29,692 nucleotides of DNA from Planctomycetota bacterium. GTDB taxonomy: Bacteria > Planctomycetota > UBA1135 > GCA-002686595. The stretch spans positions 1-29,692 of the forward strand of contig JAJFFA010001003.1 in NCBI GenBank assembly GCA_021776885.1, written 5' to 3'. The translations under genes and the position numbers were made by a program. Shown here piece by piece: positions 3,201 to 27,248 of the stretch; the first letter of the stretch is position 1, and every line of letters starts with the position of its first letter. Under the pieces are notes generated by a model, which was not told where the DNA came from, searched no databases, and saw only the letters and a list, made by a program, of their open reading frames with translations.

Positions 3201-4885
3201 ACTGCTACGACGTCGCCGTCCTGGGCTCCGGCCTGGGCGGCTCGAGCCTGGCCGCGATCCTCGCGCGCCAGGGCCTGCGCACGCTCCTGCTCGAGGCGCA
3301 GAGCCACCCGCGCTTCAGCGTGGGCGAGTCGGTGGTGGCCGAGTTCGGCGCCCGGGCCGAGCTCCTGGCGCGGGCCTTCGACGTGCCGGAGCTGGCGCAC
3401 ATGCGCAACTTCCAGCGCCTGGCGCGCATCAGCGCGGGCTCGGGGCCCAAGCGCAACTTCAGCTTCCTGCACCACACGCAAGGCCGCGAGCAGCGCCCCG
3501 GGGACGTGTGCCAGTTCGAGACCATGGCGCCGCCCCTCGGGCCCGACAGCCACATCCTGCGCGCCGAGCTGGACGCGTACCTGACCAGCGTCGCCGTGGG
3601 CTACGGCGCGGACTATCGCGACGGGAGCCCGGTGGAGAGCGTGGAGCGCAGGGGTGACGTCATGGCCCTGCGCGCCGGCGGGCGTGGGTACACGGCGCGC
3701 TTCGTGGTCGATGGGAGCGGCCCGGGCTCGTGCCTCGCCCGGCCCCTGGCGGACCCCGGACTGCGCGCGGACACGCGCTCGCTCTTCACGCACATGGTCG
3801 GCGTGGGCGCCATCGACGCGCTGCGCGGAGCGGGACCGCGGCTCAAGAGCTCCCCCGACCAGGGCACCCTGCACCACACCTTCGACGGGGGCTGGTTCTG
3901 GGTGATTCCCTTCGGCAACCACCGCGCGTCCCTGCACGACACGTGCAGCGTGGGACTGACCCTCGAGCGCTCGCGCTTTCCCGACAACGAGCTGCCCGCG
4001 GCCCAGGAGTTCGCCGAGTTCGCGGCGCGCTTCCCCACGGTCGCGGCCCAGTTCGAGGGCGCGCGTCCGATTCGGAGCTGGGTCAAGACGGGCCGTCTGC
4101 AGCGCCGGGTCGAGCGGGTGACGGGGGAGGGCTGGTGCCTGCTGCCCCACACGGCGGGCTTCGTCGATCCGCTCTTCTCGGGCGGCATGGTGCTGACCCT
4201 GCTCGGGGTACAGCGCATCGCGCAGCTCTTGCTCCAGGGTTTCGAGCAGGACGACCTGGCGCCGGCGCGCTTCGCCTCCCTCGACGAGGACGCCGCCGCC
4301 AACGCCGAGATCCAGGACACCCTGGTGCACAGCGCGTACCTCGCGTTCCGCTCCCACGCCCTGTTCCACGCCTGGTACCGCATCTGGGCCCTGGGCAACT
4401 TCCACGCGGCCCTGGGCCTGACCCGCGAGCTCCTGGCCCACGCCGCGGACCGCGGCCACGACCTCCTGGCGGGGGCCGAGGCTCCGCTGCACCGGCGCGT
4501 GATGGGCATGGGGCATCCGCGCTTGCGCGCGCTGCTCGACCAGGGTCACGCCGTGCTCGAGCGGGTGGCGGCGGGGGAGCTGGACGCCAGCCAGGGTGTC
4601 GACGCGCTCTTCGGTCTGGTCGAGGGTCTCGACTGGGTACCGCCCCAGTTCCACGTCGCGGACCGCGGCCGCGCGTACCTGACCTCGTTCACCGTGGCGC
4701 CGATGCTGCGCATGGTGACCTGGGGCAAACGCCACGCGCCGCCCGACGTGCGCGAGGCGTACTACGACCTGAGTCCCGTATACTTCCAGGAGCTGATCCG
4801 CTGCTTCGGCCGCGAGGGCGCAGGCGGACTTTCTTCTTTCTGGCGAGTGTTCCAGCACGCACACACATCCCGTGGCCGAGCCTGA
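3185..4885 (+). CDS. Flavin-dependent halogenase, PrnC-like (free-substrate type)
   Basis: 566 aa. GSGLGG FAD motif, HPRFSVGES, GPKRNFSF (catalytic-Lys position), QGTLHHTFDGGWFWVIPFGNH (WxWxIP), WVKTGRLQ and HTAGFVDPLFS. These match the motif series and length I recall for PrnC. Confidence 0.85.
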   Translation: MHSPEDCYDVAVLGSGLGGSSLAAILARQGLRTLLLEAQSHPRFSVGESVVAEFGARAELLARAFDVPELAHMRNFQRLARISAGSGPKRNFSFLHHTQGREQRPGDVCQFETMAPPLGPDSHILRAELDAYLTSVAVGYGADYRDGSPVESVERRGDVMALRAGGRGYTARFVVDGSGPGSCLARPLADPGLRADTRSLFTHMVGVGAIDALRGAGPRLKSSPDQGTLHHTFDGGWFWVIPFGNHRASLHDTCSVGLTLERSRFPDNELPAAQEFAEFAARFPTVAAQFEGARPIRSWVKTGRLQRRVERVTGEGWCLLPHTAGFVDPLFSGGMVLTLLGVQRIAQLLLQGFEQDDLAPARFASLDEDAAANAEIQDTLVHSAYLAFRSHALFHAWYRIWALGNFHAALGLTRELLAHAADRGHDLLAGAEAPLHRRVMGMGHPRLRALLDQGHAVLERVAAGELDASQGVDALFGLVEGLDWVPPQFHVADRGRAYLTSFTVAPMLRMVTWGKRHAPPDVREAYYDLSPVYFQELIRCFGREGAGGLSSFWRVFQHAHTSRGRA

Positions 4886-6098
4886 CGAGATCCCGCTCGA
4901 GACGGACGTGGTGGTGGTGGGCGCGGGCCCGGCCGGCGCGACCCTCGGCTACCTGCTGGCCCAGCGCGGCCGCGACGTGGTCGTGCTCGAGCGCGCGCCG
5001 GACGTGCCCTTCAAGATCGGCGAGTCGCTCCTGCCCGCCGGCATCGACCTGTGCCACCGCATGGGGCTCGAGGCCACCCTGCGCGACCACGGTTTCGTGC
5101 CCAAGCTGGCGGCCCAGTTCATCCTGCCCGACGGCGAACGCGGCCGCTTCCCCTTCTCGGACGGCCTGCCCGACAGCAGCCACGGCTCCCTGGCCTACGA
5201 GGTCAAGCGCCGCGAGTTCGACACGATCCTGGTCGACCACGCCCGCTCGGCGGGGGCGCGCGTCTACTTCGACACGCGCGTCGCGGACCTCGAGCTGCAC
5301 GACGGGGGCGCGCGCCTGGACCTGGCGGACGGGCGCTCGATCTCCGCGCGCTTTCTGGTCGACGCCACCGGCCAGGCCCACTGGGTCGCGCGCAAGCTGG
5401 GCCTGGCACGGCCCATCGCGGGCCTGGGCAAGGCGGCGATCTTCGCCCACTTCGACGGCATCCCCCACGGCGAGGGCGAGCAGCGCGGCGACATCGTCGT
5501 CTTCTGGGGCGAGACCTCGTGGGTCTGGATCATCCCCTTCAGCGACGGCACCACCAGCGTCGGCGCGGTCGCCGACCCGGCCACCCTGCGCGCCGCGGGC
5601 AAGACGGACCAGGAGCGCTTCGACACCCTCTGCTCCCTGACCGAGCACCACGGCGTGCTTCTGGGCGAGCGCCGCGCCCTGATGCCCCTCGAGCGCCGCG
5701 CCGACTTCTCCTACGAGTGCGAGCGCCTGTGCGGCCCGCGCTTCGCCCTGACCGGCGACGCCTCGGGCTTCATCGACCCGATCTTCTCGACGGGCGTCTT
5801 CCTGGCCCAGCAGAGCGCCTTCCTGATCGCGGACCCCCTGGCCGCGGCCCTGGACGAATCACGCCCCCTGAGCGATTCCGAGCAGGCCCACTACACGGCC
5901 ACCCTGCGCAAGGGCTTCGAGCGCTTCCGCTCGATGGTCCAGGGCTCCTACGACCACGGCTTCGTGCAACGCGCGGTCAAGCTACGCCGCCGCCGCGGCA
6001 TGCGCGCCGCCTTCACCTCACTCCTCGCGGGCGACGTCTTCGACGACGACAACCCCCTGATCACCATGGGCCTGCTCGAGAGGGGCATGCACTTCTAG
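4872..6098 (+). CDS. FAD-dependent halogenase-like oxidoreductase (PltA/CndH-like, carrier-protein type)
   Basis: 408 aa. GAGPAG, FKIGESLLP, GFVPKLAAQF (Lys), WVWIIP and GDASGFIDPIFSTG. GTG start overlaps the halogenase 1 stop by 14 nt. Confidence 0.8.
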   Translation: MAEPDEIPLETDVVVVGAGPAGATLGYLLAQRGRDVVVLERAPDVPFKIGESLLPAGIDLCHRMGLEATLRDHGFVPKLAAQFILPDGERGRFPFSDGLPDSSHGSLAYEVKRREFDTILVDHARSAGARVYFDTRVADLELHDGGARLDLADGRSISARFLVDATGQAHWVARKLGLARPIAGLGKAAIFAHFDGIPHGEGEQRGDIVVFWGETSWVWIIPFSDGTTSVGAVADPATLRAAGKTDQERFDTLCSLTEHHGVLLGERRALMPLERRADFSYECERLCGPRFALTGDASGFIDPIFSTGVFLAQQSAFLIADPLAAALDESRPLSDSEQAHYTATLRKGFERFRSMVQGSYDHGFVQRAVKLRRRRGMRAAFTSLLAGDVFDDDNPLITMGLLERGMHF

Positions 6099-17447: not shown

Positions 17448-20042
17448 GTGATGGACGAGAGCAGGATCCTCGAGAACCTCGCCTGGCTGCGGCGCGTCGC
17501 GCTGCAGCTGGTCGGCGACCCGCACCTGGCGGAGGACGCGGTCCAGGACACCGTGCTGGTGGCCCTCTCCAAGGGGCCGACCCGTGGCGGCTCTCTGCGC
17601 GGCTGGCTGGCCAGCGTGCTGCGCAACCGGGCGGGCCAGCAGCGCCTCGAGCGCGAGCGCCGGATCGCCCGCGAAGAGCGCGCGCGCCCGCCGGCGGAGT
17701 CGCCCGACCCCGGCACGGTGGTCGAGGAGCTGGCCCTGCACCGCCGGCTGTCCACTCTCGTCGAGGAGCTCGAGGAGCCGTACCGCACGACGCTCCTGCT
17801 GCGCTTCCTGCGCGAGTCCACCCCGAACGAGATCGCCCGCGAGCTCGACGTTCCGCTGCAGACGGTGCACACCCGCATCCGCCGCGGGCTGGAGCGACTG
17901 CGCGAGCGCTTCGAGCGCGAACTCCCCGGCGACAGCGCGGCCTGGGCGGCGCTGCTGGCCCCGGTTCTGCCTCCGCCCCCGCCCGTCCTGGCCGCGCCCG
18001 ACGCCGGGCTCGGCCCCGAGACCCTGGAGATTGCGATGAAGACGAAGCTGGTCGTGGGTGGCGGTCTCGCCGCCGGTGCGTTGCTGGGCTTGCCCTTCCT
18101 CTTGCGAGCCGAGCCCGCGGACGGACCCGAGCCGTTGGCCAGGGACACGCAGCAGGGCGCCCTCGTGCAGCCCCCTACGCAGGGGCTCGAGGAGACCGCC
18201 CTACCCGCGCTCGAGGCTGCGCTGGTGCGCACGGCGTTGGCCCAGGCAGAGGAACAGGCCGCGGCCGCGGAGCCCGCAGCGCCCGTGCCCGTACGCGGTC
18301 TGGTCTGCACCCTCGAGGGAGCACCGGTCGCCGATGTGCGCGTGATCTTCGAGCGCTCGCACAGCTCCGGCTTCCGCCTCGACGCGGACGGCCCGCGTAC
18401 GACCAGCGCGGGGGACGGGACCTTCGAGCTGCCCCTGCCGCCGGCTGCGGGTCGCCTGAGCGTCGACGATCCCTACTGGGCCGCGGTCGTGCGTCCGCAC
18501 CTCACCGGCGCCGCGCCCCTCGAAGCCCTCGCGCTCGTGCTGGTTCCCGCGCGCGAGTGTGCGGGGCGCGTGCTCGACGCGGCGACGGGGGAGCCCATCG
18601 CGGAGGCGCGGGTCGAGGTGACCCTCGATGGCAGCTACCTCCAGGCCCTGGGCAGCGGGGTGCGGGTCGAGCACCTGAAGCTGCCCTTCGCCCACACCCT
18701 GACGGACGCGGACGGTGCATTCCACTTCTCGGACCTGGGCTGCGTCGACCAGGCGCTCGTTGCGGCGGTCGCCTCGGGCTACGACGAGGCCAGCGTGCTC
18801 CTGTCCGAGGTGGCGCCCTTCGAGATCGAGCTGCGCATGGGTACGACCATCCCCGGCCCGCGCGCCGTGCACGGCATCGTCGTCGATGCCCTGGGCGGAC
18901 CGGTGGCCCGCGCACGGGTCGCCGTCGGCTCACGCGAGACGCGCTCGGATGCGAGCGGTCGCTTCGCGGTGGAGTTCGCGCCCTGGAGCGAGGCCGCCGT
19001 GCTGACGGCCCTGGTCCCCGGCCTGGGTGCGACGTCGCGCTTCGTCGAGCTCGGCAGCGCGCCCGGCCAGAGCGCCGACGACCCGCTTCGACTGGAGCTG
19101 CCGGCGGCACCCCACGCGATCCGCGGCCGGGTGCTCGACGCCGCCTCGCAGCCGGTCGCGGATGCCCTGGTCTGGACGCCGGACACGTCGCACTTCGGTG
19201 ACGCGACCTTCCTGCGCGCCGAGGGTGCGCTGACCGGGCCCTCGACGGTGGAGGCCCTGCTGCGCGGTGAGGCGGGGCCGATGTTCCTCTCGGCCGCGAC
19301 CCGTACGGACGCGAGCGGCGCCTTCGAGCTGCTGGGCCTGCAGCGGCGTGAGTACGCGGTCTTCGCCATGCACCCGCGCAGCCTCGCCGCCGCGGGGCCG
19401 CAGGTGGCGTTGCCCGACGCCGGCGCCCTGCTCCTGACCCTCGCGCCCGCGCCGGGCGAGCGCGTCGCCGGCCGCGTGGTCTCGCGCAAGGGCCTGCCCC
19501 TGGCGGGGGTTCAGGTCGTCCCGGGTCGCAGCCTCGACTGGGAGCACCCACGGCGCGATCCCGATCCCTGGGCCTCGAGCCCCCTGCGGCCCCCCGGCGC
19601 GTCCTGGACCTTCGAGGAGTCGAGCGTGTACACGGATGCCGAGGGACGCTTCGAGCTCGAGGGGGTCGAGCGTGCCGGGATGTCCCTCTCGTTCCGCGGC
19701 GAGATGCTCTTCCTGGGCCCGTCGCTGCGCGTCGACCGCGAGGACGACCCGCTCGCCCTGCAGGCCGAGGTCGACGCGCGCTCGACCTTCCGCGTCGTGC
19801 TGAGCGACGCGCAGAGCGCCGACACGTTCAAGCTCGGCGACGAGGAGTCCTTCGTGCCGCTCTTCGTGCGTGCCGGCAGCTCGATCATCTCCGCCGGCGG
19901 CGTCGACCTGATCGGCGGCCGCTCGGGCCTGGCCTTCACGCGCGAAGGCGAGCACACGATCGTGTTCAGCCTGGAGGGCGTCGAGGTACGCCGCGAGCGC
20001 GTGCTCTTCCCCGCGGGGGGGCCGCACCAGATCGAGCTCTGA
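17448..20042 (+). CDS. ECF sigma-70 factor fused via Pro-linker and TM helix to five carboxypeptidase-regulatory-like repeats
   Basis: Region 2: WLRRVALQLVGDPHLAEDAVQDT...LRGWLASVLRN. Region 4: LEEPYRTTLLLRF...NEIARELDVPLQTVHTRIRRGLERLR. Then PPPPP, a TM helix and repeated G.V.d..g.Pva.a.V / TD..G.F.L motifs. Confidence 0.9.
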   Translation: MMDESRILENLAWLRRVALQLVGDPHLAEDAVQDTVLVALSKGPTRGGSLRGWLASVLRNRAGQQRLERERRIAREERARPPAESPDPGTVVEELALHRRLSTLVEELEEPYRTTLLLRFLRESTPNEIARELDVPLQTVHTRIRRGLERLRERFERELPGDSAAWAALLAPVLPPPPPVLAAPDAGLGPETLEIAMKTKLVVGGGLAAGALLGLPFLLRAEPADGPEPLARDTQQGALVQPPTQGLEETALPALEAALVRTALAQAEEQAAAAEPAAPVPVRGLVCTLEGAPVADVRVIFERSHSSGFRLDADGPRTTSAGDGTFELPLPPAAGRLSVDDPYWAAVVRPHLTGAAPLEALALVLVPARECAGRVLDAATGEPIAEARVEVTLDGSYLQALGSGVRVEHLKLPFAHTLTDADGAFHFSDLGCVDQALVAAVASGYDEASVLLSEVAPFEIELRMGTTIPGPRAVHGIVVDALGGPVARARVAVGSRETRSDASGRFAVEFAPWSEAAVLTALVPGLGATSRFVELGSAPGQSADDPLRLELPAAPHAIRGRVLDAASQPVADALVWTPDTSHFGDATFLRAEGALTGPSTVEALLRGEAGPMFLSAATRTDASGAFELLGLQRREYAVFAMHPRSLAAAGPQVALPDAGALLLTLAPAPGERVAGRVVSRKGLPLAGVQVVPGRSLDWEHPRRDPDPWASSPLRPPGASWTFEESSVYTDAEGRFELEGVERAGMSLSFRGEMLFLGPSLRVDREDDPLALQAEVDARSTFRVVLSDAQSADTFKLGDEESFVPLFVRAGSSIISAGGVDLIGGRSGLAFTREGEHTIVFSLEGVEVRRERVLFPAGGPHQIEL

Positions 20043-20087: not shown

Positions 20088-20849
20088 CTACGCCGGGTGC
20101 GGTTCGCCCGCCGGGCTGTGGCTCGCATCCGCCACGCGCAGGGGCACCGTGTCCGAGAACCCGCTCAGGCCGTCGGCCTCGGTGTGCAGGGCCAGGAGCC
20201 GCGACTCGAGCTCGGCGCGCAGCACCTCGGCCTGGGCCGCGTCCATCGTGCTCGGCACGGGGATCGGCTCGCCGTAGGCGACGTAGACCTTGGCGAAGGG
20301 CAGGGGCAGGACCGTGCGGTCCCAGGACCAGCGCCAGACGAAGCTCCAGCGCGCCGAGGCCGCCACGGGCACCAGGGCGCCGCCGGTCTTCTGGGCCAGG
20401 GTCAGGATGCCGGGCTGGGCCACGCCGCGCGGGCCGCGCGAGCCGTCGACCGCGAGGCAGGTCGAGTAGCCCTCCTTCTTCACGGCCCGGATGATCGCCA
20501 CCAGCGCCTTCGCGCCGCCGCCACCCGAGGAGCCGCGCACGACCCGATAGCCGAGGCCCTCCTCGATCTGCGCCATGGCGTCGCCGTCGCGGCTCTGCGA
20601 GCACATCAGGACCCAGTTGCCCTGGTCGGCCTGGCTGTAGTGGTGCAGCAGCGAGAAGGTGCGCGTGTGCAGGAAGGCGCCGATCAAGGGGCGGCCGGCA
20701 GCGCGTTCGCGCTCGACGATGTCGCCGTGGACCTCGACGTAGCGCCAGGTCGCGCCGAGGGCGCGGTACACGCAGAGCCCGAGCGGGGCGACCACGCGCC
20801 GCATCAGCCAGGCGCGCTTCCGCTTGTGCGGCTTGGGCTCGCTACTCAC
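20088..20849 (-). CDS. DUF374 / lysophospholipid acyltransferase-like protein
   Basis: MCSQSRDGDAMAQ, VVRGSSGGGG, LAVDGSRGPRG and WDRTVLPLPFAKV motifs. GTG start overlaps the HMGR-like stop by 8 nt. Confidence 0.85.
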   Translation of the reverse strand: MSSEPKPHKRKRAWLMRRVVAPLGLCVYRALGATWRYVEVHGDIVERERAAGRPLIGAFLHTRTFSLLHHYSQADQGNWVLMCSQSRDGDAMAQIEEGLGYRVVRGSSGGGGAKALVAIIRAVKKEGYSTCLAVDGSRGPRGVAQPGILTLAQKTGGALVPVAASARWSFVWRWSWDRTVLPLPFAKVYVAYGEPIPVPSTMDAAQAEVLRAELESRLLALHTEADGLSGFSDTVPLRVADASHSPAGEPHPA

Positions 20850-22053
20850 CGCTGCGGCGCCCCAGGGCGGCGTGGGCCGCGGCGAACGAGCCTCCGGCCA
20901 TGGCTCCGAACAGTCCGATCTCGCCGCACAGGGCGACGCCGGCGAAGATCTCGGCCAGCTTGACGGCGGTGCCCTCACCCGTGCAGCCGAGCATGGAGAG
21001 GCACTCGCGCGGGCCGGGCAGGCGCGTGCCGCCGCCCACCGTGCCGACGATCAGGTTGGGCAGGGTGACGGTGACCTCGAGGTCGCCGCACTCCAGAAGA
21101 CGCGCGCGCGTGATCCCGGCGGCGGCCTCGGCGACGCAGGCGACGTCCTGTCCACAGGCGATGAAGAGGCCGGCCAGGGCGTTCGCCACGTTGGTCTGCG
21201 AGCCGACCGCGCCGCTGGCGAGGGAGCCCGAGAGGGTGTGCTCGAAGCCGCTGGCGATCCAGGCCGCCGGGGTGCGGAAGTAGCGCTGCACCAGGCGGTC
21301 GGGGATCTGCGCTCGGGCGGTGACGCGTCGCCCGCGCACGCCGGCCAGGGCCATGTGGGTGGCCTTCTTGTCGCCGGAGTGGTTGGCTTCGAGCAACCAG
21401 GCCGTCGGCGCGATGGGCGCCTCGTCGAGCACCCGCGTGCACACCGACTGGGTGGCCAGGGTGACCATGTTCTGTCCGGCCGCGTCGCCGGTGGCGAAGT
21501 CCAGGCGCACGAAGACCGTGGTGCCGATCACCGACGTCCCGATGCCCTTCAGCCGGCAGTAGCGCGAGCCCCCGGCGACCACCTCGGCGAAGTCCGCCTC
21601 GCGCGTGGGCAGCCACTCGGCGAAGCGCCGCGCGTCGGCCAGGGTGTCGAAGGCGAAGCAGGGGCTGCGCCCCACACCCTGGGCCGTGATGCACAGCTCG
21701 ATGCCACCGCAGCGCCCGAGCAGGTTGGCGACGTGCTGGTACGAGGCGACCAGCGAGCCCTCCGTGGTGGCCACGGGCACGATGAAATCGCCCTTGGCGT
21801 GGTCTCCGTTCAGCCTGAGCGGCCCGAAGACGCCCACGGGCACCTGGGCGAAGCCGATGAAGCCCTCGATGCTCCCGCCGAGCTCCTCGGGCGGGATGCT
21901 GGGCCCCTGGCCGGCGAGCTGATCGGTGTTGTGACCGGCCCGCGAGAGCACCTCGCGTCGCTCGGCGGCGGCCTCGGCGGAGGAGTCCGTTGCGGAGGGC
22001 AGCCGCAGGTTACCGGGCTCGGAGCGGGACTTGCTGGAACGGGCGGACGACAT
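20842..22053 (-). CDS. Hydroxymethylglutaryl-CoA reductase (class I-like) or homologous acyl-CoA reductase
   Basis: VPVATTEGSLVAS (Glu), TGDAAGQNMVT, SGDKK (Lys), GQDVA (Asp), GTVGGGT and C-terminal AAAHAALGR (His). Start placed at ATG 22053. Confidence 0.88.
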   Translation of the reverse strand: MSSARSSKSRSEPGNLRLPSATDSSAEAAAERREVLSRAGHNTDQLAGQGPSIPPEELGGSIEGFIGFAQVPVGVFGPLRLNGDHAKGDFIVPVATTEGSLVASYQHVANLLGRCGGIELCITAQGVGRSPCFAFDTLADARRFAEWLPTREADFAEVVAGGSRYCRLKGIGTSVIGTTVFVRLDFATGDAAGQNMVTLATQSVCTRVLDEAPIAPTAWLLEANHSGDKKATHMALAGVRGRRVTARAQIPDRLVQRYFRTPAAWIASGFEHTLSGSLASGAVGSQTNVANALAGLFIACGQDVACVAEAAAGITRARLLECGDLEVTVTLPNLIVGTVGGGTRLPGPRECLSMLGCTGEGTAVKLAEIFAGVALCGEIGLFGAMAGGSFAAAHAALGRRSGE

Positions 22054-22185
22054 GGGGGGCTGAGGCACCGCTGGAGGAGACGAATGCGGTGGGCCAAGAA
22101 GCCTATCCAAGCCTCCGCCGCAAGGGGAGCGCCTATTCCAATAGCAGGCGGATCCCGGGGCCACGGGGCGGCAATGGACGCCGCC

Positions 22186-23802
22186 TCAGGGGGTGGCGGC
22201 CTTGGTCAGGCGCACGTCTTCCCACTGCTTGCGCTCGGCGGGCGCCAGTTCGTGGTCGCGCAGGTCCTCCGGCTGCCAGGTCTCGAACAGGGCGGCGTGG
22301 GCCGCGTAGTCGGCGGAGCGGTAGCGCTCGAGGAACTCCGCGAAGTGGCCGGAGTCGAGGTAGTAGAGCAGCTGGGCCATGTCGCTCTTGCCGACCTCGC
22401 GCCCGGCGCGCATGGCGCGCTGGTAGAAGCTGCGGCCGCCCGGGGAGATCAGGCGGCTCCTGGCGATGCGCCAGCGGATGAAGAGGCGCTCGGCCAGGGA
22501 GGAGCCCTTGCGCTCCGGGCGGCGCCAGGCGCGGGTCAGGTTGGCCAGGGCCTTGTCCGAGCGGTAGCACTCGTCGTACAGCCAGGCGTAGCCGTCCATC
22601 AGCTGCTCGCGCGTCATGTGCGTCGGCTCGTAGACGACGTGGCGCGTGTCGAAGCGGCTCCAGTCCAGGGTGTCCAGGCGCCCGGCCTGATGGAACTCGT
22701 CGTGCAGCTTGGTGCCCGGCATCGGGGCCAGGATCGAGAAGAAGGGGTACAGGATCCCGTTCTCGAAGACGAAGTCGCGGGTGTCCTTGAAGACCGAGAG
22801 GGTGTCCGTGTCGAAGCCCACGATGAAGTTGCCGACGATCGTGATGCCGCGCTGCTGGATGCGCTCGGTCGCCTCCTGATAGCTGAGGCAGAAGTTGATG
22901 CCCTTGTCCATCGCCTTCAGGGTCGTCTGGCTGACGGACTCGAAGCCGATGATCAGCGTCGTGCAGCCGGCGTCGCGGAAGAGGTCCAGGAGCTCTTCGT
23001 CCGTGGCCACGTTCAGGGTCGTCTCCGCGGACCAGTCCGCCAGCTCGCCCGCGCGGCGCAGCTCGGCCAGGGCCGTCAGGAGCTCCTTGGTGTAGCGCGT
23101 GCGGCTGATGAAGTTGTCGTCCACCATGTAGAGCGCCTTCATGCGCTCACGCAGACCGTTCGCCTTGGGCATCGAGCGGATCTCGGCCAGCACGCGCTCT
23201 ACCGGCTTGAAGCGGAACGACTGGCCGGAGATGTCGGGCACGCTGCAGAAGCGGCACTTGAACGGACAGCCGCGCGTGGTCTGGAGCTGGTGGAAGAGGA
23301 ACTGCGCCGGGTCCAGGTTCGCGTAGCGCGGCGGCGGGATCGCGTCCATCTCCGGGAAGCCCGTGGCGTCGAAGCGGCGCGCTGCGCGGCCCGCGGCGAA
23401 GGCCTCGAGGAAGGCGGGCCAGGCCTCCTCGGCCTCCCCCGTGACGATGTGGTCGACGTGCTCGAGGGCCTCCTCCGGGCGCAGGGAGGCGTGGATGCCC
23501 CCCAGCACGACGGTGCGGCCCTTGGCGCGGAAGCGCTCGGCGACGGCGTAGGCCTGCTTGGAGCAGGAGGTCTTGGCCGAGAGGGCGACCAGGTCCGCCG
23601 GCTCGTCGTAGTCGATCGGAGCCAGGTACTCGTCCTGCATCGAGACCTCGTACTGCTCCGGCGTGCAGGCGGCGACGGTCAAGAGACCGAGGTCGAGCAG
23701 CGAGCGCTCGAAGCCCAGGACCTCGTTCATGAGGTCCATCTCGTACAGCTCGCGCTCGCTGGGGTCGGCGTTCTTCCGGGTGGAGACGAACAGGATCTTC
23801 AT
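22186..23802 (-). CDS. Cobalamin-binding radical SAM enzyme
   Basis: B12-binding region (DLVALSAKT...VVLGGIHASL...TGEAEE) and QTTRGCPFKCRFC CxxxCxxC; VDDNF, IIGFES and GNFIVGFDTD. Confidence 0.92.
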   Translation of the reverse strand: MKILFVSTRKNADPSERELYEMDLMNEVLGFERSLLDLGLLTVAACTPEQYEVSMQDEYLAPIDYDEPADLVALSAKTSCSKQAYAVAERFRAKGRTVVLGGIHASLRPEEALEHVDHIVTGEAEEAWPAFLEAFAAGRAARRFDATGFPEMDAIPPPRYANLDPAQFLFHQLQTTRGCPFKCRFCSVPDISGQSFRFKPVERVLAEIRSMPKANGLRERMKALYMVDDNFISRTRYTKELLTALAELRRAGELADWSAETTLNVATDEELLDLFRDAGCTTLIIGFESVSQTTLKAMDKGINFCLSYQEATERIQQRGITIVGNFIVGFDTDTLSVFKDTRDFVFENGILYPFFSILAPMPGTKLHDEFHQAGRLDTLDWSRFDTRHVVYEPTHMTREQLMDGYAWLYDECYRSDKALANLTRAWRRPERKGSSLAERLFIRWRIARSRLISPGGRSFYQRAMRAGREVGKSDMAQLLYYLDSGHFAEFLERYRSADYAAHAALFETWQPEDLRDHELAPAERKQWEDVRLTKAATP

Positions 23803-24656
23803 CGCGGGGCTCCGAGGCGGAAGTCTTGGACGGTGGCGTTGAGGGCGCGGCGGTCACCGGGACTGGCGACGGACTGGGCGCTCGCGCGCACGGCGCCGCC
23901 CACGTGCAGTCCGGCGCGGGCGGCGTCCATGCTGACGGGCTGGCGCCAGGCGACGATCTCGCGCTCGACCCCGGTCCAGAAGCGGTAGCGCGCTTCGAGC
24001 GAGAGGCGCGCCCCGCGGCGCACCTGTTCGCGGCCCTCGTCGCTGGTGACGAGGAGGCTCAGGACCTCCGTCATCCAGGCCCCGTGGTCGATGTCCTGCT
24101 CGGTGTGCAGGTCGAAGTAGAGCCGCTCCTCGGCGCTGAAGCCGGCGCGGATCAGGCCCGGGATGATGTGCGCGAACATCTTCGGGATGGCCCACTCGTG
24201 CCCCGGGCCGAGGGCGCCCAGGCCGACCAGGAAGGGCTCCTGGCTGGTGATGCGCAGGTGCTCGCGTACGAAGGCCCAGACCTCGGGGCAGAGCGGCGTG
24301 GCGTCCATCTCCGCCTCGTGGGCCCCCGCGGCGGCGAGGAAGCGGCGGTACAGGGTCTCGTGGTCGTCGCCGTCCGAGCCCTCGCCGTACTCGGCCACCA
24401 GCACCTTCGCCAGCCAGAGCTTCTCGGTCGAGGAGGGGGCGCGCAGCAGCAGCAGCTCCATGTAGCGCGTGAAGAAGCCGACCAGGGCCACGTGCTGCAG
24501 CCCGAAGACGCGGTAGTCGCGGCGTGTGTAGGGGCCGGTCGCGAGGCGCGAGAGCAAGAGGTGGTTGACCCCGGGGTGCGTCTGCACCTCGCGCTCGAGC
24601 CGGTCGAGCCAGGTCTCCTTGCGCTGCGGCGGCGCCTGGGGAGTGAGGATCGTCAT
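23799..24656 (-). CDS. Heme-oxygenase-like diiron enzyme (iron-containing redox enzyme; CADD/PqqC/TenA fold)
   Basis: Ligand-like motifs EYGEGSDGDDH, GPGHEWAIP and YFDLHTEQDIDH. ATGA overlaps with both neighbours. Confidence 0.82.
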   Translation of the reverse strand: MTILTPQAPPQRKETWLDRLEREVQTHPGVNHLLLSRLATGPYTRRDYRVFGLQHVALVGFFTRYMELLLLRAPSSTEKLWLAKVLVAEYGEGSDGDDHETLYRRFLAAAGAHEAEMDATPLCPEVWAFVREHLRITSQEPFLVGLGALGPGHEWAIPKMFAHIIPGLIRAGFSAEERLYFDLHTEQDIDHGAWMTEVLSLLVTSDEGREQVRRGARLSLEARYRFWTGVEREIVAWRQPVSMDAARAGLHVGGAVRASAQSVASPGDRRALNATVQDFRLGAPR

Positions 24657-26146
24657 GACTGGGTCTGCAGCGCGGGTTCGCGCGGGGTCTCGACCTGCTC
24701 GAGGTCGTGGCCGATGATCTCGTACTCGTCGCGCAGGTAGCTCTCGGGGTCCTCCATGATGCGCCGCACCATCTCGCGCCGGCGCGTGAAGAGTTTCATC
24801 CCCGGCCACACGTCGAGGGCCAGGCGTGGGCGCTTGCGCAGGAAGCCCAGGCCCAGGGAGCCCCGGGTCGAGGCCATGGTGGCCTGGTTCCAGCGCGCGT
24901 AGTGCCGGTAGAACTCCGCCCGCGGCAGCTTGGTCGGCACCACGGCGTGCAACAGATCGAAGAGTCGCGCGTCGCGGGTCAAGAGCGTGTCGCCGGCCGC
25001 GCGGTACGACTGCGTGCCGGGCAGGGGCATGTGGATCACGACCAGCGGGATCGTGATCTTCATCTCGTTGATGGCGGCGTAGAGGCGCTCGAAGTCGGGC
25101 TCCTCGAACTCGGGGCGCACCATGAAGATGCCCGTGGTCAAGACTCCCGCGTCGTTGAGGAGCCTCGACGCGGCCAGGTTCTGCTCGCGCGTGGCGCCCT
25201 TCTCGAGGGAATCGAGCACGTCCTGGTCGTTGGTCTCGTAGCCCGAGAGCACCATGGAGAGCCCGGCCTTGGCGAAGCGCTTGACCAGGTCGGGGTTGTC
25301 GGCGACGAAGTCGGTGCGGCCCTGGATCATCCAGTGCTTCTTGACGCCGCGGCGCTCGATCTCGTCGAGCAGCTCCTCCATGCGCCCGCGGTGCGTCAGG
25401 AAGTTGTCGTCCAGGAAGAAGACGAACTTCTCCGGCGCCGCCTCCATGCGGTCGACGATCGCGCGGGCCGAGAGGAAGCGCACCTTCTTCTCGTAGAACT
25501 CCCAGATCGCGCAGAAGTTGCAGTCGAAGGCGCAGCCGCGGCTGGTCTGGATCGAGACCATGCCCTGCGCCGGGCCGAAGAAGTAGGCCCCGGCGTAGGC
25601 GTCGAGCAGGTCACGCGCGGGGGCCGGGAAGGTGTCGAGGGCTCGAGCCTGGCCGCGCTTGCCCGTCGCGATGCGCTCGTCGCCGCGCCGGAACTGCAGC
25701 CCGTCGATCCCGTCGAGGGCCTCGCGCTCGCCCCCCGCGGCCAGGTGCTCGACCAACTCCAGGAAGGTCTCCTCGCCCTCGCCGATGCAGATCGCGTCGA
25801 TGTAGGCCTCGTCGTGCTCCTCCGCGGCCAGGGTCGGGTGGTGCCCGCCGATCAGGGTGAAAACGCCGGAGCCGAGGATCGACTTGGCGCAGTGCAGGAC
25901 TGCCTTCGCCTGGTAGGCGTCGGTGGTCATCGACGTCACGCCGACGAGGTCGGGCCGGAACTCGTCGAGCACGCGCGGCAGGGCGTCGGCCTGCTCCAGG
26001 CGCATGTCGAGCACGCGCACCTCGTGTTCGTCGCGCACCATGGCGGCGAGGGAGGTCAAGGCCACGGGCTCGGACAGCCAGAGCACGTTCTCGAGGCCCA
26101 GGCGACCATTCTCGAAGGGGGAAGGTTGGACGAGGAGTAGGCGCAT
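24653..26146 (-). CDS. Cobalamin-binding radical SAM enzyme (HpnP/HpnR/BchE superfamily-like)
   Basis: LLVQPS...EPVALTSLAA, PDLVGVTSMT, GGHHPTL, CIGEGEE and QTSRGCAFDCNFC motifs. Confidence 0.92.
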   Translation of the reverse strand: MRLLLVQPSPFENGRLGLENVLWLSEPVALTSLAAMVRDEHEVRVLDMRLEQADALPRVLDEFRPDLVGVTSMTTDAYQAKAVLHCAKSILGSGVFTLIGGHHPTLAAEEHDEAYIDAICIGEGEETFLELVEHLAAGGEREALDGIDGLQFRRGDERIATGKRGQARALDTFPAPARDLLDAYAGAYFFGPAQGMVSIQTSRGCAFDCNFCAIWEFYEKKVRFLSARAIVDRMEAAPEKFVFFLDDNFLTHRGRMEELLDEIERRGVKKHWMIQGRTDFVADNPDLVKRFAKAGLSMVLSGYETNDQDVLDSLEKGATREQNLAASRLLNDAGVLTTGIFMVRPEFEEPDFERLYAAINEMKITIPLVVIHMPLPGTQSYRAAGDTLLTRDARLFDLLHAVVPTKLPRAEFYRHYARWNQATMASTRGSLGLGFLRKRPRLALDVWPGMKLFTRRREMVRRIMEDPESYLRDEYEIIGHDLEQVETPREPALQTQS

Positions 26147-26323
26147 GGGGGACGCTTGCGATCCGATGGGAAGCGAGGACGCTGCGAGTATGGAGCGCCG
26201 GCCCGGAACGATCGAGCGGATTCCTATCCGCGGCTATTCGGCGCGGCGCGGGGATCGGATGAGTCTCGCGGGGATAAGTCGGCCTGTGTGCATCCGGGCT
26301 GCCGCTCCGAGCGAAGTCCCGGG

Positions 26324-26337
26324 TAACCTTTAGAGGA
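26324..26337 (+). promoter_or_regulatory. Putative -10 (TAACCT) and SD (GAGGA) for the TIGR01777 gene
   Basis: gggTAACCTttaGAGGAgagttctgATG. Confidence 0.45.
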
Positions 26338-26345
26338 GAGTTCTG

Positions 26346-27248
26346 ATGCAAGTCTTGGTCACCGGTTCCAGCGGCCTCGTGGGCTCCGACCTCGTCCCGC
26401 GCCTCGAGCGCGCTGGACATGGCGTCTCACGCCTCGTGCGCCGGGCCCCGAGCGGCCCCGCCGAGGTCCAGTGGCAGCCCGAGCAGGGCCGGCTCGAGGC
26501 CTCGGACCTCGATCCCTTCGACGCTGTGATCCACCTGGCGGGCGAAGGCATCGCCAGCCGGCGCTGGAGCAGCGCGCAGAAGCAGCGCATCCGCGACAGC
26601 CGTGTCGACGGCACGCGGCTCCTGGCCGAGCGCATCGCCGCCGCCGGCTCGCCCCCGGGGGTGCTCGTCTGCGCCTCCGCGGTCGGGCTCTACGGGTCCC
26701 GGGCCGACGAGCTCTTGACCGAGGAGAGCGCGGCGGGGGAGGGCTTCCTGTCCGAGGTCTGCAGCGCCTGGGAAGCGGCCGCCGACCCGGCCCGTGCCGC
26801 GGGCACGCGCGTCGTGCACCTGCGCCTGGGCGTGGTCCTGTCCCCGTCCGGCGGTGCCCTGGGCAAGATGCTGCTGCCCTTCAAGCTGGGCCTGGGCGGA
26901 CGCCTGGGCAGCGGCGAGCAGTGGATGAGCTGGATCAGCCTCGACGACGTCTCGCGCGCCTTCGTGCACGCCCTGACGGACGCCGGTCTCGAGGGTGCGG
27001 TCAACGCCGTCGGCCCGGCGGCGGTGACCAACGCCGAGTTCACCAAGACCCTGGGCCGGGTGCTCGGCCGGCCGACGATCCTCCCCGTGCCCGCCTTCGC
27101 CGCACGCCTGGCGCTGGGCGAGATGGCCGACGAGCTGCTCCTCGGTGGCCAGCGCGTCCAGCCCGCACGCCTCGCCGCGACCGATTTCTCCTTCGAGCAC
27201 ACGACCCTCGAGGCGGCGCTGCGCCACGTGCTCGGCAAGCCCAATTGA
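26346..27248 (+). CDS. TIGR01777-family NAD-dependent epimerase/oxidoreductase (YfcH/SDR39U1-like)
   Basis: VLVTGSSGLVG, IHLAGEGIASRRW, SAVGLYG, GEGFLSEVCSAWE, GSGEQWMSWISLDD and VTNAEFTKTLG. Confidence 0.93.
   Translation: MQVLVTGSSGLVGSDLVPRLERAGHGVSRLVRRAPSGPAEVQWQPEQGRLEASDLDPFDAVIHLAGEGIASRRWSSAQKQRIRDSRVDGTRLLAERIAAAGSPPGVLVCASAVGLYGSRADELLTEESAAGEGFLSEVCSAWEAAADPARAAGTRVVHLRLGVVLSPSGGALGKMLLPFKLGLGGRLGSGEQWMSWISLDDVSRAFVHALTDAGLEGAVNAVGPAAVTNAEFTKTLGRVLGRPTILPVPAFAARLALGEMADELLLGGQRVQPARLAATDFSFEHTTLEAALRHVLGKPN

Follow-up and report, generated by a model that had tools for sequence, protein, structure and literature searches.

A conserved gene pair for a B12-binding radical SAM enzyme and a heme-oxygenase-like diiron oxidase in Planctomycetota and Myxococcota: a possible light-linked tetrapyrrole tailoring complex

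Here we describe an operon encoding two B12-binding radical S-adenosylmethionine (SAM) enzymes and, between them, a heme-oxygenase-like diiron oxidase (HDO), located in a 29,692-nucleotide stretch of DNA from a planctomycete (assembly GCA_021776885.1, contig JAJFFA010001003.1; hereafter the window) that constitutes an entire 29.7-kb contig of a metagenome-assembled genome (67% complete, 73% G+C). The nearest protein matches carry Planctomycetota names. The first radical SAM gene is designated rSAM1 and the second rSAM2. Comparison of related loci establishes that the conserved unit is the rSAM1-HDO pair, to which rSAM2 is a frequent, dispensable extra. The two partner proteins are likely, on the strength of structure prediction, to bind each other, and in several lineages their genes stand opposite a gene for the B12-dependent photoreceptor CarH. 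We tentatively propose, inferring both the substrate class and the chemistry, that rSAM1 and HDO form a light-linked complex that tailors tetrapyrrole side chains.

That the three overlapping genes represent a real and conserved operon we regard as virtually certain. Both junctions read ATGA at exactly the positions expected (Table 1), as an earlier reading of the window from its sequence alone (the sequence-only reading) had reported; G+C content at third codon positions is 0.95-0.96 in both rSAM frames, and the values by codon position are those of real genes. The same reading described the flanking radical SAM enzymes as divergent, in agreement with a mutual identity of only 26-28%, and saw no adjacent precursor peptide. 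This also holds: the genes of the window overlap, the rSAM1-HDO gaps of relatives are short, and no conserved small open reading frame (ORF) occurs in these gaps, the large ones being accounted for by N-terminal extensions.

A search with an HDO profile of contigs representing one genome per species retrieved 196 relatives, from which the best 80 loci were analysed (loci and genomes are denoted below by L and G numbers); the HDO tree and alignment comprise 84 rows, divided between a Planctomycetota clade of 13 rows, including the window, and a clade of 71 rows drawn mostly from Myxococcota. Of the 73 loci with room for it, 66 have an rSAM1 orthologue (50-74% identity) as the gene immediately 5' of HDO, in the same orientation, and the junction permits a 4-nucleotide ATGA or GTGA overlap in 42 of 71 related loci. 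By comparison, about 31-34 of the 80 loci (~40%) contain rSAM2, mostly just downstream and sometimes upstream or on the opposite strand; in genome G062 it occupies another contig, and none was found in genomes G063 and G064. Because it is found in a minority of loci, is unlinked in one genome and was not found in two others, we consider it accessory. The linkage noted by the sequence-only reading thus recurs in many other genomes; its conserved core, across two phyla, is rSAM1 with HDO, and rSAM2 is a frequent addition.

Two further gene types recur beside the pair. A gene for a metallo-beta-lactamase (MBL)-fold protein, matched only by a generic hydrolase model, follows HDO or rSAM2 in 17 loci, and in 14 a gene for a multiheme cytochrome c is next to rSAM1. 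Lake and groundwater Myxococcota of one lineage (L033, L035-L037, L046, L065 and others) have the latter gene immediately 5' of rSAM1, in the same orientation; its product there has ~380 residues with Cytochrome_C7/MtrC-like CXXCH repeats. The HDO family as a whole comprises hundreds of clusters at 90% identity, almost exclusively from uncultured Myxococcota and Planctomycetota; given this size and spread, the product of the module is probably widespread ecologically.

By their profile matches, HDO, rSAM1 and rSAM2 all belong to known superfamilies and none belongs to a characterised family within them; the description of the trio as uncharacterised is upheld, no protein reaching the cut-off of a characterised family (HpnR, BchE, CADD or BesC). 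HDO matches Haem_oxygenas_2 (PF14518) at 90 bits, and its AF2 model (pLDDT 90.5) identifies CADD, BesC, HrmI and UndA as the best solved folds, with a Foldseek probability of 1.00. The helical heme-oxygenase-like fold is accompanied by the 3-His/3-carboxylate diiron site typical of this superfamily: residues E89, H99, E154, H184, D188 and H191 align to the metal ligands of CADD and do not vary in any of the 84 rows, bearing out the complete ligand set read from the window. Mean column identity over the family is 51%, with many polar or charged residues conserved. HDO nevertheless scores below the curated cut-offs for both CADD-type 4-aminobenzoate synthase (TIGR04305; 46 bits, cut-off 200) and BesC 4-chloro-allylglycine synthase (NF042919; 40 bits, cut-off 500), and in the profile alignment the positions of CADD Tyr27 and Lys152 are occupied by an invariant Leu (L35) and by Ile, respectively. 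The fold also matches that of PqqC (TM 0.65-0.69), the name given by JGI to many HDO orthologues; matches in the ESM Atlas carry automatic names only.

Both radical SAM proteins combine a B12-binding domain (PF02310) with a Radical_SAM domain (PF04055), each above cut-off (72 and 69 bits in rSAM1; 42 and 67.5 bits in rSAM2), and possess the CX3CX2C motif, as do class B enzymes. In rSAM1 this motif reads CAFDCNFC (C205, C209 and C212) and is invariant among 32 orthologues, whose mean column identity is 63%; in rSAM2 it reads CPFKCRFC, at residue 179. The best characterised relative of rSAM1 is HpnR (TIGR04367; 214 bits, cut-off 650) and the second best is BchE (TIGR02026; 145 bits, cut-off 481), so that rSAM1, judged from these scores, is HpnR/BchE-like and a member of neither family. 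For rSAM2 the corresponding scores are also below the cut-offs (73 and 96 bits), and its top NCBIfam matches, at ~100 bits, are MJ_1487, HpnJ and the methyl-coenzyme M reductase (MCR) Gln C-methyltransferase, all far under their cut-offs. Neither protein shows a match in Pfam or NCBIfam to a SPASM domain or to a RiPP recognition element (RRE; RiPP, ribosomally synthesized and post-translationally modified peptide), and sequence searches of solved structures returned only remote matches (AprD4, OxsB, TokK, CysS and 9ccb) that are uninformative on substrate.

Strict adjacency and translational coupling prompted a prediction of complex formation between rSAM1 and HDO. Three runs gave ipSAE values of 0.85, 0.86 and 0.85, versus 0.00 for the best control; of 80 solved complexes 58 came up to that mark, as did 2 of 110 mismatched pairs, counts that are rough since our own alignments were used. 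The predicted interface involves, on rSAM1, an invariant N-terminal motif, a surface of the B12 domain and the conserved C-terminus and, on HDO, residues 26-46 and 224-250. If this interface is real, HDOs that lack the partner should show a degenerate interface and retained metal ligands, and this is the pattern seen. Six of the seven HDOs without rSAM1, drawn from three lineages or more, have only 28-50% identity to the consensus of partnered proteins at the interface positions, versus 65-69% elsewhere in the protein; in partnered HDOs the interface-to-rest ratio is 0.94 and never below 0.68 (Mann-Whitney p = 0.002, kin not being independent). The unpartnered proteins, whose rows lie on long branches, keep all six ligands. 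We judge from these models and comparisons that rSAM1 and HDO probably bind each other.

The regulatory context of the pair in several relatives points to light. A gene for a MerR/B12-binding CarH protein is divergent from rSAM1 in six loci, one of Planctomycetota type (L017) and five of the Myxococcota clade (L031, L053, L055, L066 and L088), and a CarH gene is likewise divergent from a lone HDO in L019 and L040. Adenosylcobalamin (AdoCbl)-dependent CarH is defined by the motifs Wx9EH and ExHxxG, and its operator by tandem 11-bp TnnACA repeats (PMC9304148). Both motifs are intact in the CarH proteins of these loci. Ten chains of tandem 11-bp TnnACA repeats occur in the 1.34 Mb of loci scanned, and seven of them fall within 350 bp upstream of rSAM1, regions that make up ~1.7% of the sequence; repeats and canonical CarH are found together in all six of the loci with CarH opposite rSAM1. 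In four loci from Labilithrix metagenome-assembled genomes (L031, L053, L055 and L066) the sequence TGGTCAATAGnTTGACAnnnnnTGGACA, between carH and rSAM1, consists of two TnnACA repeats and a degenerate one. A single CarH site has been predicted in Labilithrix luteola, upstream of an unlinked carH (PMC9304148); TGGTCAATAGnTTGACAnnnnnTGGACA matches this described site, and in the Labilithrix loci examined here it is the rSAM1-HDO operon that this site faces. Carotenoid genes are the usual targets of CarH, and the term "radical SAM" occurs nowhere in the paper that describes its regulons (PMC9304148).

Other genes near the module have similar associations. RudS, a fusion of TudS and DUF1722, is a tRNA 4-thiouridine (s4U) desulfidase typical of light-responsive operons (PMC11417400), and in L023/L147 and L056 genes for RudS, an SRPBCC protein and a YfcH-type short-chain dehydrogenase/reductase (SDR) are transcribed divergently from the module. 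The YfcH-type SDR recurs in Planctomycetota, near the module in the window, L021 (where it is divergent from rSAM1), L023/L147 and L017; its companions in the divergent gene groups of L023/L147 and L017 are SRPBCC, RudS or CarH. In the window the SDR gene is the only such light-context neighbour. We consider it probable that the module is regulated by light in lineages possessing CarH; for the window, light regulation is possible and rather doubtful. Light control is claimed here for some lineages only, because a strict CarH operator is missing from ~57 of the 67 upstream regions of relatives.

For the window operon, control by CarH itself was considered and rejected, since TnnACA repeats are lacking upstream and the only CarH-like gene of the genome encodes a protein without the His ligand. 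That gene (contig C819:2837-3790, equivalent to L101:1474-2409) retains Wx9EH, has GDPSALP in place of ExHxxG and an excisionase-type helix-turn-helix, and may encode a B12-binding regulator of another kind. Five TnnACA repeat pairs exist in the window genome, all of them elsewhere, and the best coincides with the ordinary sigma-70 promoter of a pseudopilin gene. A gene in which an extracytoplasmic function (ECF) sigma factor is fused to CarboxypepD_reg repeats is found near the trio both in the window (17448-20042, + strand) and in its closest relative (L021:3057-6368), the sigma domains being 35% identical, and two CarboxypepD_reg proteins are encoded beside the CarH/HDO locus of L019; the fusion is a possible alternative, lineage-specific regulator of the module.

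Some lone HDO genes have other neighbours. In L019 a gene (L019:4162-6294, equivalent to L111:2237-4366) encodes a 710-residue KedN5-like B12 radical SAM C-methyltransferase with a C-terminal stretch resembling the RiPP-binding ApyI; it is located with SRPBCC and CarH genes beside HDO, and ThiC-family and ChaN-type heme-binding genes lie downstream. In L056 a DUF2804 gene (4550-5461) adjoins the lone HDO, divergent from RudS.

An indication of substrate class comes from HDO orthologues that occur without rSAM1. In a sample of 401 Planctomycetota genomes, 46 carry an HDO orthologue and only five of these carry rSAM1, always adjacent to HDO. Among the 41 Planctomycetota loci with stand-alone HDO (L105-L145; genomes including G227, G192, G418 and G275), 27, from seven families, have the ferrochelatase gene hemH as the next gene downstream, in the same orientation; these stand-alone orthologues show 50-59% identity. 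The linkage is also seen in L095, L096 and L098, the last with a response regulator gene (L098:5151-5699) between HDO and hemH. In all five near-complete genomes of family f62 that bear the HDO-hemH operon, no HemF, ChdC or HemN was detected above cut-off, the best scores with the HemN model (110-124 bits versus a cut-off of 325) being at the level of HemW-like paralogues; HemY-type, HemJ-like and HemH genes are present in all five. Since HemF, ChdC and HemN were not found, these genomes appear to be devoid of every known enzyme for converting propionate to vinyl side chains. UndA, itself an HDO, decarboxylates fatty acids oxidatively to give a terminal alkene, the same type of reaction. A 2026 review of heme biosynthesis mentions no diiron or heme-oxygenase-like enzyme. 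Across the sample, HemF or ChdC is present in 11 of 46 HDO carriers versus 116 of 355 non-carriers, with no clear exclusion. From gene content, stand-alone HDO is a candidate for the missing coproporphyrinogen or coproheme decarboxylase of Planctomycetota that lack HemF, HemN and ChdC. We read the ferrochelatase link as evidence that tetrapyrroles are the substrate class of the HDO family, and not as evidence for a particular reaction of the trio.

These observations can be accommodated in the following scheme. An rSAM1-HDO heterocomplex would act in turn on the side chains of one tetrapyrrole-type substrate (a porphyrinogen, porphyrin, heme or corrinoid). rSAM1 would perform a step dependent on B12 and the 5'-deoxyadenosyl radical, in which an unactivated side-chain carbon is methylated or undergoes a BchE-type oxidation, and HDO an O2-dependent diiron oxidation, such as an UndA-type oxidative decarboxylation of propionate to vinyl. 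Where present, rSAM2 might carry out a further radical alkylation and, in some lineages, the MBL-fold protein a hydrolytic step. In several lineages CarH, as an AdoCbl photoreceptor, would repress the operon until light switches it on, consistent with a role in handling photosensitising tetrapyrroles. A tetrapyrrole substrate fits the relationship to BchE, whose target is a propionate side chain of a porphyrin, as well as the cytochrome c neighbours and light control, free porphyrins being photosensitisers. A bolder version, which we regard as unlikely in its entirety, would have the O2-activating HDO and the O2-labile rSAM1 constitute one obligate two-protein catalyst that, under light control, makes a new modified porphyrin or heme or detoxifies a photosensitising one, with the stand-alone HDOs serving many Planctomycetota as an aerobic coproporphyrinogen or coproheme decarboxylase, a fourth and unrelated solution to the propionate-to-vinyl problem.

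Several points weigh against a light-linked tetrapyrrole complex. The assignment of tetrapyrroles draws on the gene context of stand-alone HDO orthologues, and no hemH gene lies within 10 kb of the rSAM1-HDO loci. Carriers of the pair mostly keep a canonical HemF or HemN, so that ordinary heme synthesis does not depend on the pair. HDO and ChdC coexist in eight genomes of family f21, a finding that leaves HDO as a simple replacement for ChdC unsupported there. The closest solved HDOs (CADD, BesC and HrmI) act on amino-acid-type substrates, and the complex itself is a prediction from models. As to light, the divergent intergenic region of the window (Table 1) has no tandem 11-bp TnnACA repeats, the incomplete window genome provides only the non-canonical CarH-like gene, and the scarcity of strict operators among related upstream regions was noted above.

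The first alternative is that the module makes an amino-acid-derived small molecule, rSAM1 C-methylating a free amino acid or a similarly polar metabolite that HDO then N-oxygenates, in the manner of BesC, HrmI or SznF, or fragments by C-C cleavage, with a second methylation by rSAM2 and a protective or signalling product. The nearest solved and curated HDOs use Tyr or Lys-type substrates, the polar and charged residues kept by the HDO family are compatible with such a ligand, and it is generally known that B12 radical SAM enzymes commonly C-methylate amino-acid carbons (a list is given in PMC12931638). The scores of HDO, however, are far under those family cut-offs and the self-sacrificial Tyr27 and Lys152 of CADD are replaced by Leu and Ile; among the 80 loci, no gene for a non-ribosomal peptide synthetase (NRPS), carrier protein, transporter or other biosynthetic enzyme is conserved with the pair, and the high conservation over two phyla, together with the ferrochelatase linkage, fits a core metabolite better. 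We consider this alternative unlikely.

An isoprenoid lipid substrate has still less in its favour. Here rSAM1 would be an HpnR-related C-methylase of a hopanoid, sterol or carotenoid and HDO would oxidise the same lipid during light-induced carotenogenesis or membrane adaptation. HpnR is indeed the best characterised relative of rSAM1, CarH usually governs carotenoid genes (PMC9304148), an HMG-CoA reductase (HMGR)-family gene lies 3' of the trio in the window, and ispH/lytB adjoins a lone HDO in one genome. Against this, the HpnR cut-off is missed widely; the 80 loci share no crt, hpn or mevalonate pathway (MVA) gene within 10 kb, and the HMGR gene is unique to the window contig. Among five large Myxococcota carrier genomes, of completeness not given, a clear squalene-hopene or oxidosqualene cyclase (SHC/OSC; PF13243) occurs in one, whereas G061 and G064 have no match and G063 and G065 only fragments; a homologue of phytoene/squalene synthase (SQS_PSY) is missing in two. 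The emphasis placed by the sequence-only reading on a lipid substrate is not sustained by these genomes, several carriers being without one or the other type of enzyme, and a hopanoid, sterol or carotenoid was accordingly rejected as the general answer. We think an isoprenoid reading improbable.

It is comparably improbable that HDO is an iron-handling or protective subunit, donating Fe(II) to the rSAM1 cluster or to ferrochelatase, or scavenging O2 beside the oxygen-labile radical SAM enzyme. A tight predicted complex with rSAM1 would suit this role, as would the mutually exclusive placement of HDO next to rSAM1 or ferrochelatase, both of which use iron, and the diiron sites of HDOs are generally known to be labile. 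Yet the 84 orthologues show no variation in the six ligands or in many second-sphere residues, as is the case for catalytic HDOs, and we know of no HDO that functions as an iron chaperone.

The remaining genes of the window bear on a further alternative. Directly 3' of rSAM2 is the HMGR-family gene, which scores 265 bits with the NADPH HMGR equivalog model (cut-off 442); no terminator-like site separates the two, and in the window this gene may be co-transcribed with the trio. In some myxobacteria, second HMGR copies are located inside light-regulated carotenoid clusters (PMC9304148). In the divergent intergenic region upstream of rSAM1, no match to a sigma-70 consensus was identified, and no motif was found to be common to this region and those of eight related Planctomycetota (nine in all). 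A search of sequencing runs located the window stretch in two runs, both biofilm metagenomes; no RNA runs were shown to contain it.

Table 1. Coordinates of the operon, its junctions and neighbouring features in the window
Feature	Position	Strand	Description
rSAM1	26146..24653	-	B12-binding radical SAM enzyme, 497 aa; first gene of the operon
HDO	24656..23799	-	heme-oxygenase-like diiron oxidase, 285 aa; ATG start at 24656
rSAM2	23802..22186	-	second B12-binding radical SAM enzyme, 538 aa; accessory member
ATGA overlap, rSAM1 stop / HDO start	24653..24656	-	read from sequence
ATGA overlap, HDO stop / rSAM2 start	23799..23802	-	read from sequence
Divergent intergenic region, rSAM1 / SDR gene	26147..26345	.	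presumed site of both promoters
YfcH-type SDR (Epimerase + DUF1731)	26346..27248	+	divergent from rSAM1; TIGR01777 337 bits, cut-off 207
HMG-CoA-reductase-family gene	20842..22164	-	directly 3' of rSAM2, same strand; PF00368 311 bits
DUF374 gene	20088..20978	-	overlaps end of HMGR gene; PF04028 69 bits

The sequence-only reading had suggested that the substrate might come from a nearby polyketide synthase (PKS) or from the HMGR-like enzyme, which would make the trio a tailoring cassette for an aryl-polyene or flexirubin-like type II PKS product or for that of the HMGR-like gene. Proximity within one contig favours the idea, as do the common strand of HMGR and DUF374 and the missing terminator. 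In the 84 related loci, however, no homologue was found of the window genes for HMGR, DUF374, ketosynthase (KS), acyl carrier protein (ACP), MMPL, GT2/DUF2062, halogenase or deacetylase; besides the trio and the SDR neighbour, the only match to the window is the ECF sigma domain in L021. The PKS and HMGR linkage is on this account either accidental or private to the contig, genes for an SSF transporter, a rhodanese and the ECF sigma factor part the PKS block from the trio, and we give the proposed source of substrate very little credence. Equally far-fetched is a PQQ-like or other RiPP-derived cofactor, in which a radical SAM enzyme would crosslink or methylate a peptide and PqqC-like and PqqB-like (MBL) proteins finish the product: the PqqC names and fold match and the 17 MBL-fold genes speak for it, but PqqC is cofactor-less whereas the HDO family keeps its complete diiron site, the MBL protein matches a generic hydrolase only, and the B12-type radical SAM enzymes, without SPASM or RRE domains, have no conserved precursor ORF, PqqD or peptidase beside them.

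If the light-linked tetrapyrrole complex is correct, it would be a first case in which a single complex joins radical SAM chemistry to O2-dependent diiron chemistry, would add to CarH photoregulation an output beyond carotenoids and, through the stand-alone HDOs, would offer a testable candidate decarboxylase in Planctomycetota without HemF, HemN or ChdC. We know of no described case in which a B12 radical SAM enzyme and an HDO work as a bound pair. No description of a radical SAM-HDO pair or complex, or of a CarH-controlled radical SAM operon, was found in the literature searched, which took in gaps in the heme pathway as well, and a 2026 review of B12 radical SAM enzymes (PMC12931638) mentions no diiron or heme-oxygenase-like enzyme or partner.

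The module can be compared with several known systems. Like CarH/LitR regulons, which govern carotenoid, photolyase and RudS operons, some of its relatives display a divergent carH, tandem TnnACA repeats over the promoter and neighbours from light-responsive operons; unlike them, the regulated genes form a B12 radical SAM/HDO operon, and the window has no operator. The chemistry proposed for HDO would be that of HemN/CgdH, HemF/CgdC and ChdC, oxidative decarboxylation of porphyrin propionates, and the f62 genomes with a hemH operon are without all three; these enzymes, however, have no sequence or fold relationship to HDO and are usually present in carriers of the pair. CADD (the Chlamydia 4-aminobenzoate synthase), BesC, HrmI and UndA share with HDO its fold (TM by target of 0.82-0.88 for CADD and BesC) and its 3-His/3-carboxylate ligands, but their identity to it is only 20-21%, curated cut-offs are missed and Tyr27 and Lys152 of CADD are absent; to our knowledge none of the four is bound to a radical SAM enzyme or operonic with ferrochelatase. 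HpnR, the hopanoid C-3 methylase, has the same B12-binding and radical SAM architecture as rSAM1; it differs in having no HDO partner, in its score (214 versus 650 bits), and in that most rSAM1 carriers tested are without a hopene cyclase. The nearest functional analogy is that of BchE and AcsF, the anaerobic B12 radical SAM and aerobic diiron cyclases of Mg-protoporphyrin IX monomethyl ester. These are alternative isoenzymes rather than partners, AcsF has a ferritin-like fold, and rSAM1 falls short of BchE (145 versus 481 bits), whereas rSAM1 and HDO are coupled in translation, are predicted to bind each other and are carried mostly by non-phototrophic Myxococcota and Planctomycetota. BchE, the second-best characterised relative of rSAM1, and AcsF nonetheless resemble the proposed pair, being a B12 radical SAM enzyme and a diiron oxygenase that both serve the side-chain chemistry of a tetrapyrrole.

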